A stretch of 64,000 bases of DNA from Sulfolobaceae archaeon (GTDB lineage Archaea; Thermoproteota; Thermoprotei_A; Sulfolobales; Sulfolobaceae): assembly GCA_038893355.1 (NCBI GenBank), contig JAWARQ010000002.1, forward strand, positions 64,001 to 128,000. The letters are read 5' to 3'. Each line of letters opens with the position of its first letter. Positions within the stretch are counted from its first letter, which is position 1. The notes below the pieces were generated by a model, which was not told where the DNA came from, did no database searches, and saw nothing but the letters and a program-made list of their open reading frames with translations. Made by a program: the position numbers and the translations under genes. Below are positions 6,858-54,372 of the stretch, in pieces.

Positions 6858-6990
6858 TGATTTTTTCTAATTAATTATAAATTATAATTAATATGTATAT
6901 ACTAATAAAATTTTAATTTAATATAAATTAATATGTATCTCTTCCCATTATCATTGCTCTTATGAAAATTCTTATACATCTATAATTCAC

Positions 6991-8133
6991 TTAACTCTTC
7001 TTTTCCTTTAAATATCCAAATAAGTAAGTTATGCCTGATATAAGGACAAAGATAGAGTCAAAATAAAATGGTAATGTATAGCTAGCATCATATAAATATC
7101 CAGAAATAGCATAGCCTATAATGCTACCCAAGTCTTGAGAAGCAGAAATAATACCAACTGCAGAACCCTTAATACTCACTCTTCTACCAATATACGCGGG
7201 CCAAAGTGTGTACAGTGCATTAATAAGAATTGCATTAATGAAAGCGATTAATATAATAACAAATATATTTTTAGAAAGATAAAATAATATTAATATTGAA
7301 GATATTATCAAATTGGCACCTATAATTAAAAATTCATGTAAATTTTTACCATAATTTCCCCATAACTGTGATGCTAAAATATTTCCGATACCAATCATTG
7401 TATAAGTTATACCCACATAACTTGCATTAAGATCTAAAATATCTACTACGAATAATGGAAAAACTATTTGAAATATGCCAAGTCCAATATATTCAAAAAA
7501 GTTACCTAATAAAACTATTAAAATTGATATATTTTTTAAATTTTGAAAATTTATATTATTATTCATCATGTTAATATTATAAACTTTTATATAATTTTTT
7601 AAAGAAAATAAAATTATTAAAGAAAATAATAAAATAATATTTACAAATAGAAAGAAAATTTTATGATTGAAGGTATATAATAGGGATCCAATTAAAGGTC
7701 CTATAGTAGTTGAGATGTAAGAAAGACTATTATATAATCCAAAAGCTTTCCTATATTCATCTTCTTTACTTATAGTCATGATATAAGCTATTAATGAAGG
7801 TCTAAGGAACGAAGTACCAATACCTTCTATCAATCTAACGAGAAATAGATACTGCCAAATCTCTATGAAGTCATAGATGATAAATGCAATTAAATAAAGG
7901 ATAAGTCCTAATAATAATATATTATACTTATTCTTAATATCGAATAGAAAGCCTGTTATCGGTTGAATAATTATCCTAACTATTACATAATTAACTACTA
8001 AAAGTCCTATAGTATAAGTAGGTGCCCCCAGATTTTGGGCGTATAGTGGGAAAATGATAAGAAATGAGAAAAACACAGTATTCACAAATATACTTACAAT
8101 AGAGAGCATTAATAGTACATGAAGTTTATACAA
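6991..8133 (-). CDS. MFS transporter, probable exporter of the cluster product
   Basis: About 12 hydrophobic segments, motif A-like GFLFDIKNK, RLIEGIG, GPLIG; starts 3 nt after the rSAM stop. Confidence 0.9.
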   Translation of the reverse strand: MYKLHVLLMLSIVSIFVNTVFFSFLIIFPLYAQNLGAPTYTIGLLVVNYVIVRIIIQPITGFLFDIKNKYNILLLGLILYLIAFIIYDFIEIWQYLFLVRLIEGIGTSFLRPSLIAYIMTISKEDEYRKAFGLYNSLSYISTTIGPLIGSLLYTFNHKIFFLFVNIILLFSLIILFSLKNYIKVYNINMMNNNINFQNLKNISILIVLLGNFFEYIGLGIFQIVFPLFVVDILDLNASYVGITYTMIGIGNILASQLWGNYGKNLHEFLIIGANLIISSILILFYLSKNIFVIILIAFINAILINALYTLWPAYIGRRVSIKGSAVGIISASQDLGSIIGYAISGYLYDASYTLPFYFDSIFVLISGITYLFGYLKEKKS

Positions 8134-8136
8134 TTT

Positions 8137-9201
8137 CTAATCCCTTAGTGTTTTTGGACAAAATGGGTCTGGAGCGTAAATATCATTTAAGAAAAGGTAT
8201 GCAAATACCCTTGAACCACCTCTGCATTTCTCTACGAATTCACAACTTATACAAGGTTCTTTGAACCAATCATTCTGTCTAAACATATTAAGAGCAACAG
8301 AATTTTTCCATATTTTATCTATAGAATTTTCCCTTACATTATCAAATTTAATAACCCCTTCATAAAGTAATGTGTCTGCAGACTCCACTAAAGGTAAAAC
8401 GTAACCTTCAGGATTTATTATCATACCATAATATCCCCATATGTTAGGCTTAACTTTAAAGTAATCTTTAGCACGATTAATAATTTTAAAACTAATATGC
8501 CTATTATATTCTGCTTCTAAATCAGAAACAATTTCATTAATCTGTATTATTTCTTTAAATTTTGGAATAATCTTAGGATTCTTATAAGCGAAGCCTGCCG
8601 GCAAAACTGGCTGAATAATTAAAGCGTCTAGCTTCCTATATTTTGCATCTAGTTCAATTATTAATTTTAAAATTTTCTTTAGTTTCTCATATAAATTAGC
8701 ATAAATTGACAAATGAAATATTGCAGCCTTATGTTCTCCTTCTTTTTCTTTAAATAATATAATTTTTTTGTAAAAATATTCTAAATTTCTGAATATATTA
8801 TAATCATCACTATTGGCATATCTATATACATGTAGGCTTAATTGCATTAAATCTAGGTAATCTCTAATAATTTTAATGCCATTTTCATTTAATAATAATC
8901 CATTAGAGGAAAGAGCAGTAATCGTATTAAACGATTTAGCATATTTAATTAATTCAATTACACCCTCATATTTTAGAGGCTCTCCTCCAGTAAATATCAA
9001 AATTTTAGTACCTAGCTCAACCACTTGCTTAATTATAGATTTCCATTCCTCTATACTTAACTTTTTTCTATCCATATGAGTTGGGTTAAAACAATATGGG
9101 CATCTGAGATTACAGTCATAAGTTAATTGTAATTCTACAATATGTGGTATCTTTGGATCTAAAGATAATAATTTACTTTGATTTTGTAAAAAATCAAGCA
9201 T
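8137..9201 (-). CDS. PqqE-like radical SAM/SPASM peptide maturase with atypical SPASM domain
   Basis: ELQLTYDCNLRCPYCFNP, FTGGEPL; C-terminal WFKEPCISC-x5-C...PDPFC parallels PqqE. Confidence 0.88.
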   Translation of the reverse strand: MLDFLQNQSKLLSLDPKIPHIVELQLTYDCNLRCPYCFNPTHMDRKKLSIEEWKSIIKQVVELGTKILIFTGGEPLKYEGVIELIKYAKSFNTITALSSNGLLLNENGIKIIRDYLDLMQLSLHVYRYANSDDYNIFRNLEYFYKKIILFKEKEGEHKAAIFHLSIYANLYEKLKKILKLIIELDAKYRKLDALIIQPVLPAGFAYKNPKIIPKFKEIIQINEIVSDLEAEYNRHISFKIINRAKDYFKVKPNIWGYYGMIINPEGYVLPLVESADTLLYEGVIKFDNVRENSIDKIWKNSVALNMFRQNDWFKEPCISCEFVEKCRGGSRVFAYLFLNDIYAPDPFCPKTLRD

Positions 9202-9213
9202 GTTGTAAACCTT

Positions 9214-9366
9214 TTACAATTTTTCCAACGATATCGCTATAACTCCTATATATAATGAAGAACTGATAGGATTGTAATCTACTATATCTTTGTTTCTACT
9301 TAATTCTTTTTTAATCTCATAGACTTTATTTATAGTTATGAATTTAGTAGATAGGTTTCCTTGCAT
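9214..9366 (-). CDS. Putative 50-aa RiPP precursor peptide MQGNLSTKFITINKVYEIKKELSRNKDIVDYNPISSSLYIGVIAISLEKL
   Basis: Internal ATG of the 97-aa track ORF, preceded by GGGGGAT and a TATA box 25-30 nt upstream; ends 12 nt before the rSAM ATG. Confidence 0.7.
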   Translation of the reverse strand: MQGNLSTKFITINKVYEIKKELSRNKDIVDYNPISSSLYIGVIAISLEKL

Positions 9367-9390
9367 TTTTATCCCCCAGATTATCTTTAA

Positions 9391-9411
9391 CTTAAACGGT
9401 TTTTTTTTTTT
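9391..9411 (-). promoter_or_regulatory. BRE/TATA promoter of the peptide-rSAM-MFS operon
   Basis: Minus strand A12-CCG-TTTAAG, with the TATA 25-30 nt upstream of ATG 9366. Confidence 0.6.
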
Positions 9412-9534
9412 AACTCTCAATAATTCTAAAAAGTTATCATAAATAACAGTTATTATGTCAATAAAATTTAAACACTTGTCATTAATACTAATATCATATA
9501 TAAACAATTTTTAATAAACCTTAAGAATTACATT

Positions 9535-9897
9535 CCCGTAGACCCCAAATTCATCACCTCGAAAATAATTCTAGAGAGTTAAAAATTGGATAGAATAATT
9601 TAACTGAATATTCTTGAATCGTAGTAATATTACCTTACAAAACAAAATCAAGATAATTAGTAGTAAGCGGAAGTCCTCTTTGCTTGTTGTTCCCCTTGAA
9701 GAGTAGGTAAAGCGTGTAAATTAACATTGCCAAAGCGAAGATGAACAAGCGAACTAACCAACTCCTTGATGAGGTAAAGATGAGAAATGATTTGATTAGC
9801 TTGTAAGAAGTCTCTATTGGTGTCCTAACCTTGTCATACCAATTTATTACAATACTCCTATGCACGTCTAGGTTCGTCCCCTTGGCCAAGTACTCTA
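9535..9897 (-). pseudogene. 3' fragment of an ISH3-family (IS4-like) transposase with its terminal sequence
   Basis: EYLAKGTNLD..YDKVRTPIETSYKLIK..FTSSR..RLFIF DDE C-terminal signature. Continues through two frameshifts (GTTSKEDFRLLL; QEYSVKLFYPIFNSLELFSR*). Putative end CCCGTAGACCCC at 9535. Confidence 0.85.
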
Positions 9898-10258
9898 TAT
9901 AGGAAGTTGATTAGGATTGTATTGAGTGTTTGATATAATAATAAGCCTTACGAGCCTAAGTGATTGAGGAACCCTCCCCTAATCGCCACGTGGGCCCTTT
10001 AGACCCACGTGGTAATGTTAGCTTACACTATGCTTGAAATATGACCGAAAGATTTATTACTAAACGCCAGGCTGCATAGAAATATCCAAACAACTTAATT
10101 GCTAATTTTTCGAAATTCTTTAGTATTAGTATATAGATAACAAGGGCTAATTAAAATTATAAATTATATTATATAATTAAAAAGATAAAAAATTATTTTA
10201 TTATTTTTAATTAAATTATGAATACATCTAAAAATTGAAATTTAATTTTAAAACTTTA

Positions 10259-10344
10259 CGCCGGGGGCGGGATTTGAACCCGCGCGGGGGAAACCCCCAG
10301 CGGCTTAGCAGGCCGCCGCCCTGGCCAGACTAGGCGACCCCGGC
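10259..10344 (-). tRNA. tRNA-Ser(GCT)
   Basis: GCCGGGG/CCCCGGC acceptor stem, GCGGC-CT-GCT-AA-GCCGC anticodon arm, long variable arm, GGTTCAAATCC. Confidence 0.97.
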
Positions 10345-10399
10345 AATATATCATATTTATTTACTCCTTAAAAACTCTTATTCACTTAGAATTGATTTC

Positions 10400-53931: not shown

Positions 53932-54372
53932 ATGAGAGTTAAAATAAAGCCGATTGTTAATGTCGTAGGTGAAGAAGAGCTAATAATAATACCTATTACA
54001 AAGTCTAGAGATTACTATCTATGCCTTAATTTTTTTGAAGATATTCCAGAAGGCAGACTAGCAAGATTAGTAGTAGTTTTAGATAAGTATGATGAAATTA
54101 ATAATAATATAGTAAAAATTGCTGGAAAAAAGACATTTGTTGAGGCAGAAGAAGTAGAAGAGGCTTATACGGAGTTAAGTAAAGTTATAGTAATAGAGAG
54201 AAAAGCACCATCATATGTTATTCCATTATATTTTAATATTGAGGTAACTGAAGTTTCGTTAACGGAAAGTGAAGGCGTAAAGGGTTATTTTAATTATATT
54301 AAAAAATACGGTGAGATAAAGATTGAAAGACTAAGAAATATCATTCCTTTCTCCGTTAATGAATTGGTTTAA
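53932..54372 (+). CDS. Hypothetical protein
   Basis: 146-aa ORF filling the rtcA-dpo4 gap. Confidence 0.7.

Follow-up and report, generated by a model that had tools for sequence, protein, structure and literature searches.

The window analysed here, a stretch of 64,000 nucleotides from a Sulfolobaceae archaeon (assembly GCA_038893355.1, contig JAWARQ010000002.1, positions 64,001 to 128,000), encodes a radical S-adenosylmethionine (SAM) enzyme, P0001, whose SPASM domain has no cysteine at the four ligand positions of auxiliary cluster I (AuxI) and four cysteines at those of auxiliary cluster II (AuxII). P0001 belongs to a clade that is sister to PqqE-type proteins, and we put the probability at roughly 60% that the enzymes of this clade are two-cluster, PqqD-independent maturases of the type acting on peptides that are made by ribosomes and modified after translation (RiPPs), with export of the product. 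Three things lead to this reading: the conserved order of a small open reading frame (ORF), the enzyme gene and a gene for a transporter of the major facilitator superfamily (MFS); the position of the clade as sister to PqqE; and a translated peptide gene in one branch of the group, clade B. The architecture of the enzyme is well supported. We infer that the upstream peptide is its substrate, and do so only weakly for the window's orphan ORF of 50 amino acids; the RiPP reading is firmer for clade B than for that ORF. The enzyme gene and the parts of it that matter for the argument are these:

8137..9201, minus strand: gene for the radical SAM/SPASM enzyme P0001, an ORF of 354 amino acids belonging to the PqqE-sister clade
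9091..9114, minus strand: CX3CX2C motif of the radical SAM cluster (C30, C34, C37), translated as CNLRCPYC
8389..8457, minus strand: SPASM beta-hairpin, the expected home of two AuxI ligands, translated as KVKPNIWG...VLPL
8206..8253, minus strand: AuxII motif CX2CX5C (C317, C320, C326) followed by GGSRV, translated as CISCEFVEKCRGGSRV
8158..8160, minus strand: C348, the fourth AuxII ligand position, within a DPFC motif (8137-8163 is translated as FCPKTLRD and a stop)

The span 8137..8460 encodes residues 248-354 of P0001, its SPASM domain. Residues 256-320 matched the SPASM model of Pfam, PF13186, with 29.2 bits (cut-off 21.5), the Radical_SAM model PF04055 scored 64.2 bits (cut-off 29.5), and the SAM-binding motif GGEP is made up of G72, G73, E74 and P75. 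The best NCBIfam model was that of PqqE, TIGR02109, which matched over the full length with 168.6 bits, under its cut-off of 381.35; AhbD, NirJ2 and TIGR04053 ranked next, and P0001 stayed under the cut-offs of AhbD TIGR04545 (97.8 vs 500 bits) and TIGR04053 (94.7 vs 395 bits) as well.

In PqqE, AuxI is bound by four cysteines and AuxII by three cysteines and one aspartate (PMC10452713, excerpts), with Cys248 among the ligands of AuxI and Cys341 among those of AuxII (PMC10906245, excerpts). A scripted count found seven cysteines in all of P0001, at positions 30, 34, 37, 317, 320, 326 and 348; it agrees with the translated spans and with the first-pass annotation of this DNA, which had listed these seven and no others. 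The same annotation had described all four AuxI positions as devoid of cysteine and the aspartate of AuxII as replaced by cysteine, and both statements held in the phmmer alignment with PqqE chain 6c8v, the best solved relative by sequence (E 1.9e-24). The first AuxI cysteine of PqqE falls on a deletion of four residues ahead of W255, L271 stands in place of the AuxI cysteine of 'LPC' ('LPL' in P0001), and S330 and V332 replace the two AuxI cysteines of 'GGCRC' ('GGSRV' in P0001). The aspartate of the PqqE AuxII site ('EKD') aligns with C326, and the other AuxII cysteines with C317, C320 and C348; in PqqE numbering, we take the residues of this region to be C310, C313, D319, C323 and C325. When CteB chain 5wgg was aligned by phmmer, the fourth cysteine of its CX2CX5CX3C motif fell on S330. 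P0001 therefore has the AuxII cysteines only of the seven-cysteine SPASM motif for two auxiliary clusters, and it departs from the PqqE ligand set at both sites. Since the AuxI site is lost, the sequence leads us to expect two [4Fe-4S] clusters, the radical SAM cluster and AuxII. The pattern is not an assembly artefact, because contigs of four other public sequencing runs matched parts of 6900-9600 with no differing letter; runs X2 and X3 span nearly all of 8137..8460, and X4 and X5 span parts of it.

An AlphaFold (AF2) model of P0001, computed from the subfamily alignment, reached a mean predicted local distance difference test score (pLDDT) of 85.2 and a predicted TM-score (pTM) of 0.87. Foldseek returned PqqE as its best match (E 2.2e-18), and VIA-align superimposed the model on 6c8v with Z 27.7 and a root-mean-square deviation of 3.0 over 297 residues. 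Compared with radical SAM structures, the model gave Z scores of 20-28, the next matches being SuiB (Z 25.4), SkfB (Z 22.1) and CteB (Z 21.1). Because the alignment with PqqE spans residues 15-354, the modelled SPASM fold is complete and not a Twitch-like truncation.

To place P0001 among its relatives, we combined two sequence searches with an alignment and a tree. The word-indexed search gave 117 matches at E <= 1e-5, among which P0002 was nearest with 38% identity and the others reached at most 30%; with phmmer, run exhaustively against 1.84 billion representatives, 13 proteins came up at E <= 1e-30, P0002, P0118, P0119 and P0120 being the top four after P0001 itself. These four have no AuxI cysteine and all four AuxII cysteines. 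The first-pass annotation had named the retention of AuxI cysteines in all close homologs as one observation that would speak against a separate subfamily, and none of the four nearest proteins retains them. The same cysteine pattern was found in a second branch, consisting of P0131, P0147, P0185 and the copies in genomes G218 and G024.

We then aligned 224 collected proteins of 280-520 amino acids and read the eight SPASM ligand columns against a PqqE-type reference row. The PqqE ligand pattern occurred in 44 rows, while AuxI columns free of cysteine combined with AuxII columns made up entirely of cysteine occurred in 10. Eight of these ten constitute the subfamily (P0001, P0002, P0118, P0119, P0120, P0131, P0147 and P0185); the remaining two, P0076 and P0160, look like members of other families. 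Across the eight subfamily members (alignment A2; 26-38% identity to P0001), C30, C34, C37, GGEP, W255, G256, G266 and P270 are invariant, as are C317, C320, C326, G328, G329, R331 and C348 in the C-terminal part. No member has a cysteine at an AuxI position, and no conserved His, Asp or Glu takes its place: the four positions hold a deletion; L/M/F/S/G or a gap; S/G/F; and V/M/I/T/F/Y.

A quick maximum-likelihood tree of 71 rows, with supports from the Shimodaira-Hasegawa-like approximate likelihood ratio test (SH-aLRT), resolved clade A (P0001, P0002, P0119, P0118 and P0120; support 98) and clade B (P0185, P0131, G218, P0147 and G024; support 99), whose ten proteins are 26-40% identical. The two clades join with a support of 84 and are sister (94) to a clade of 17 full-SPASM rows that contains the PqqE-type proteins. 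The shared cysteine pattern, the clustering in the tree, the invariant radical SAM motif and GGEP, and the conserved gene order with the MFS gene support the view, already advanced in the first-pass annotation, that the P0001 group is a distinct subfamily and not the outcome of decay. Another group with a SPASM-like tail, comprising P0037, P0039, P0184 and P0208, was recovered with SH-aLRT 99. At least P0037 and P0039 possess CX2CX5C followed by GGSR, with the AuxI cysteines of the hairpin and the final AuxII cysteine absent; at most three or four cysteines are left in the tails of this group.

The enzyme gene lies in the middle of a short run of features on the minus strand:

6991..8133, minus strand: MFS_1 transporter gene, 380 amino acids (PF07690, 138.8 bits), starting 3 nucleotides past the stop codon of the enzyme gene
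9214..9366, minus strand: small ORF, a candidate precursor peptide gene and an orphan, with 50 codons at 9217..9366 and the stop at 9214, ending 12 nucleotides upstream of the enzyme gene
9405..9423, minus strand: 19-nucleotide promoter-like element, about 40 nucleotides upstream of the start of the small ORF

At six of seven loci (the window, G017, G024, G218, G229 and G142), the next gene downstream of the enzyme gene encodes an MFS_1 protein, the seventh, in G166, being a locus with a 2-kb deletion that takes away the 3' end of the enzyme gene together with the transporter gene. The best NCBIfam matches of the window's MFS protein are drug and metallophore exporters. Upstream of the enzyme, the four Sulfolobaceae loci of clade B carry a conserved small ORF on the same strand, with 39-45 codons and a C-terminal part rich in tyrosine; public records list it as a hypothetical protein of 41-65 amino acids. 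Between G017 and G024, two of its serine codons switch between TCA/TCT and AGT with the residue still serine, a change that would be difficult to account for if the ORF were not translated. In G218, which belongs to another family, a small ORF abuts the enzyme gene and shares PPSYYMT with the clade-B peptides. A DNA pattern for [PA]-P-x-Y-Y-M-[VTAI] gave 8 matches in 5 genomes (reversed control, 3), and six of the eight have a subfamily gene a short way downstream, among them the match in G218 and one beside a degraded second copy in G229. The E-X3-Y motif, which PqqA carries, was absent from the upstream peptides of the window and clade B when their sequences were read.

The small ORF of the window, a candidate precursor gene next to the enzyme gene, has both a Shine-Dalgarno (SD)-like site and the 19-nucleotide element, but it is an orphan: a gene call for the same 50-residue product is on record and has no relatives. 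Its tie to the clade-B peptide genes is one of position: in DNA alignments, its ATG and the SD-like GGGGGA line up with the region where those genes start. A resemblance seen by eye between this ORF and the clade-B peptides ('KxYxIKK') was dropped as compositional.

G024 has an identical copy of the 19-nucleotide element upstream of its peptide gene, and G017 and G229 have near-identical ones; the flanks TTTTCA...CTGTT that surround it are also common to the window and these upstream regions (in L040, L039 and L043). The enzymes that stand behind this common element are only about 30% identical. Its exact sequence occurs once in the genome of 1.40 Mb, and within the window there are 2 matches at <= 2 mismatches against 0.03 expected. 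The element probably serves these cassettes as a shared promoter or operator. Two further copies with 2 mismatches are present in the genome, one at the upstream end of a second cassette on contig C15, overlapping the TTG that is listed as the start of the small ORF there, and one that overlaps an unrelated ORF (at 53932) in its start codon. At window position 9400, just 3' of the element, one contig of run X2 (depth 5.5) is 1 base shorter in a run of A, either through homopolymer length variation or through an assembly error.

The second cassette and a further gene of the PqqD family bear on the question of a peptide chaperone:

L126:1913-4594, minus strand: second cassette, contig C15 of the window's genome (G000), with a small ORF (60 amino acids as listed), PqqD, a radical SAM enzyme (374 amino acids) and MFS_1 (366 amino acids)
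G000:C4:169033-169317 (L127:4034-4318), plus strand: stand-alone PqqD-family gene (49 bits), directly upstream of a MoeA-like gene of 547 amino acids

The PqqD of the C15 cassette matched PF05402 with 42.3 bits, and its enzyme has the full seven-cysteine SPASM motif. No PqqD was found in the window cassette, and its upstream ORF gave no match to PF05402; the only PqqD genes of the window's genome are those on C15 and C4. The latter was considered as a third cassette and set aside, as the 12 kb listed for this locus show no radical SAM gene; its 547-residue neighbor was named by eye and is presumably MoeA-like. In five of five genomes with a clade-B enzyme, PqqD is encoded far away from the cassette. 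Each clade-B genome searched has a PqqD-family gene elsewhere, with an open frame of 93-111 amino acids. On PqqE, PqqD docks at residues 235-252 and 328-350, beside the AuxI and AuxII ligands (PMC10906245, excerpts), and segment 235-252 includes the loop that is shortened in P0001.

We propose that the enzyme, as the middle gene product of a three-gene cassette of small ORF, enzyme and MFS exporter, would modify the peptide encoded upstream without a partner of the PqqD or RiPP recognition element (RRE) kind, and that the MFS protein would export the modified peptide. Of the SPASM domain, the distal (AuxII) site alone would remain, with C317, C320, C326 and C348 as its four ligands. By analogy with PqqE, the chemistry may be the formation of a cross-link onto an aromatic residue; the clade-B peptides possess a tyrosine-rich core that includes the PPSYYM motif. 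Without AuxI, which normally takes up the electron in a PqqE-like cross-link, oxidation of the radical intermediate may follow a different path, with the electron passing to AuxII through the conserved region around W255 or returning to the radical SAM cluster; alternatively, the reaction may be redox-neutral and need no electron route.

Several observations weigh against this proposal. Knocking out either auxiliary cluster of PqqE abolished cross-linking (PMC10906245, excerpts); since PqqE needs both, chemistry of the PqqE kind cannot be taken for granted in an enzyme that has no AuxI. Support for joining clades A and B is not strong (SH-aLRT 84, in a quick tree). The synteny of clade A is that of the window locus, as no genomic context was found for P0002, P0118/P0264, P0119 or P0120. 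With a clade-A profile, only the window's own gene was found at E <= 1e-55 in 401 genomes of the phylum; a metagenome scan for clade-A context gave, among the matches listed, distant radical SAM loci only (best full-length match, 28% identical), and contig searches with P0264 and with P0002 as queries found no relative.

The peptides and transporters pose further difficulties. The 50-residue ORF of the window is without homologs, and the PPxYYM pattern has no match in the window's genome. We ran a profile hidden Markov model (HMM) of four clade-B peptides on 48,226 six-frame segments of this genome; the window ORF is absent from the 3200 matches at E <= 1000, the best of which (E about 0.5) lie elsewhere. 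The clade-B profile search of the genomes did not recover the window ORF, nor did the four-peptide HMM recover the small ORF of G218, whose link to the others is a motif of seven residues. From cassette to cassette, the MFS proteins show hardly any resemblance (23% identity over 249 amino acids, E 0.007; in a second comparison, 27% over 123), and their orthology is not demonstrable, family and position being all that they have in common. The usual cargo of MFS proteins is small molecules. AhbD, the sole published AuxII-only SPASM precedent that we found, acts on a tetrapyrrole, and in its cluster count, substrate, chemistry and export our proposal reaches by inference beyond the observed cysteine pattern, clade, synteny and coding of the clade-B peptide.

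The enzyme family is rare and patchily distributed, and some of its genes are broken. Of 301 genomes of the class searched with the subfamily profile, 8 scored >300 bits. Intact copies are present in the window's genome, G229, G017, G018, G024 and G218, while those of G142 (two stops, one of them in place of the third cysteine of the radical SAM motif) and G166 (one stop, besides the deletion) are broken. Since the contig of G166, though filed under another family, is 99.9% identical to that of G142, it is not an independent case. The second copy of G229 (G229:C1:771670-772731) has 15 stops and scored 210 bits, all lower matches being at <= 167 bits; even so, it still has the PPSYYM peptide motif upstream. 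In the cluster of P0147, Saccharolobus records bear the names 'radical SAM protein', 'radical SAM/SPASM domain-containing protein' and 'PqqE-1'. Two features precede the cassette of the window:

9635-9889, minus strand: ISH3-family transposase fragment, matching only the last 62 of 298 profile positions
10258-10345, minus strand: tRNA-Ser(GCT), just upstream of the cassette

This placement suggests an insertion hot spot or acquired DNA. In G017, an ISC1217 transposase flanks the cassette.

Such patchiness, the broken copies of G142, G166 and G229 and the insertion sequence (IS) elements beside the cassette would fit a PqqE-like gene that is decaying or survives as an inactive relic, yet the ORF of the window is intact, its radical SAM cysteines, GGEP and four AuxII cysteines are invariant in eight proteins at 26-38% identity, gene order is conserved, and several independent runs gave the identical sequence; we accordingly give the relic very little credence. 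Just as improbable is a three-cluster enzyme that still binds AuxI through ligands other than cysteine. There are models for unusual ligation, since AuxII of PqqE uses an aspartate and AuxI of CteB only three cysteines (PMC10452713, excerpts), but at the four positions the eight members share no conserved His, Asp, Glu or Cys, and the loop of the first ligand is four residues shorter than in PqqE. Rather less far-fetched, and still improbable, is that the four C-terminal cysteines form a purely structural site, a [2Fe-2S] cluster or zinc, that holds the SPASM fold together and has no redox role. A variant of AhbD without AuxII (RS/AuxI) had wild-type-like activity, the role of AuxII being called enigmatic (PMC10452713, excerpts); a review calls it unclear (PMC9012708), and auxiliary-ligand mutants of EpeE were insoluble (PMC13012085, excerpts). 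Set against this are the spacing CX2CX5C...X21C, which is that of the AuxII motif binding [4Fe-4S] in characterised SPASM enzymes, and the need of PqqE and MftC for AuxII in order to form product (PMC10452713 and PMC10906245, excerpts).

The alternative to which we would assign the most weight, while still holding it to be unlikely, is that the enzyme, like AhbD and NirJ, has a small molecule or cofactor as the target of its tailoring, that the MFS protein serves to import this substrate or to export the product, and that the small ORFs are regulatory leader peptides or unrelated. The tetrapyrrole substrate of AhbD, the only AuxII-only SPASM enzyme found in the literature, would fit it, as would the ranking of AhbD, NirJ2 and TIGR04053 behind PqqE among the NCBIfam matches, the predominance of small molecules among MFS cargo with drug and metallophore exporters as the window protein's best matches, a cassette that has neither RRE nor PqqD, and the orphan status of the window's small ORF. 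In the tree, however, the clade is sister to the peptide-modifying PqqE and lies away from AhbD and TIGR04053; the clade-B peptide gene is conserved, translated and travels with the enzyme, with six of eight motif matches adjacent to it; and the paralogous C15 cassette, which has the same layout and promoter element, carries the peptide chaperone PqqD.

If a PqqD-independent peptide maturase is indeed encoded here, it would mean a radical SAM RiPP-like pathway in Sulfolobaceae and a natural two-cluster enzyme in which SPASM chemistry runs on AuxII alone. A wider picture is possible, although we advance it tentatively: an undescribed RiPP-type pathway of the Sulfolobaceae in which an AuxI-less, PqqD-independent sister of PqqE acts on a short peptide (rich in tyrosine in the Saccharolobus branch) exported by an MFS protein, with two paralogous cassettes under a common promoter or operator, perhaps co-regulated as an archaeal system for signalling or of the peptide antibiotic kind. 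What each of the two auxiliary clusters of SPASM does is still debated, and a sister of PqqE without AuxI and PqqD, whose genome also encodes a paralog with both, offers a natural comparison for the need for AuxI and for an RRE partner. Some Sulfolobaceae are genetically tractable. Should the peptide reading fail, a well-defined, uncharacterised enzyme family would still be left. The published AhbD precedent lowers the surprise of an AuxII-only architecture; what is new here is the position as sister to PqqE, the loss of PqqD, the cassette of peptide, enzyme and exporter, and the full-SPASM paralog in the same genome, which make for a good experimental system.

In the literature, our search found no paper on a PqqE-like cassette of the Sulfolobales and no description of an AuxI-less relative of PqqE. 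An AuxII-only SPASM domain is a known variant in another family: AhbD of non-methanogenic archaea is missing the four AuxI cysteines, has conserved Glu/Ser there and keeps CX2CX5CX20-38C, according to alignments and AlphaFold models (Fix et al. 2023, PMC10452713, excerpts). P0001 resembles it in having CX3CX2C and CX2CX5CX20-38C and in missing the AuxI cysteines. It differs in that the AuxI positions of its subfamily are mostly hydrophobic, next to a deletion, where AhbD has the conserved Glu/Ser, and in that AhbD acts on Fe-coproporphyrin and has no peptide or MFS neighbors. Four Sulfolobaceae proteins (at loci L005-L008, in G006, G021, G004 and G005) display the AuxII-only pattern of seven cysteines as well; the one that was scanned, that of L005, matched TIGR04053 with 478.7 bits. 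On the tree, the loss of AuxI in AhbD/TIGR04053-type proteins is independent of that in the P0001 clade (2 changes). Each is encoded in a pair of adjacent genes, and the partner gene at L005-L008 is AhbC/NirJ1-like, with two hairpin cysteines and 'GGDR' in place of the CX3C cysteines.

PqqE is the closest known system by sequence, profile and structure and through the sister clade, and neither enzyme has an N-terminal RRE. The residues Pro245 and Trp252, which are specific to PqqE (PMC10906245, excerpts), align with P252 and W255 of P0001, and the AuxII frame CX2CX5-x...C is common to both. Unlike PqqE, P0001 is without AuxI cysteines, has cysteine for aspartate at AuxII and scores under the TIGR02109 cut-off; its cassette is without PqqD and has an MFS gene downstream, no search having been made for other pqq genes.

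Twitch enzymes (BtrN, MoaA and EpeE) share with P0001, as predicted, a single auxiliary cluster besides the radical SAM cluster. The cluster kept in Twitch is reportedly the one nearer the active site, the equivalent of AuxI. Twitch corresponds to a truncated SPASM domain and has one cluster (PMC9012708; PMC13012085, excerpts), whereas P0001 has the full-length domain, keeps the C-terminal CX2CX5C...C and with it the distal site. EpeE (YydG) was not used as an AuxII-only precedent, since it is described as an extended twitch (T-SPASM) with one auxiliary cluster (PMC13012085, excerpts). Among RiPP maturases, SuiB, CteB and SkfB were the next-best structural matches; they have an N-terminal RRE and two auxiliary clusters (a twitch in SkfB), whereas P0001 has neither RRE nor AuxI. 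Its gene layout, with a small ORF upstream and an exporter downstream, follows the usual logic of RiPP systems.

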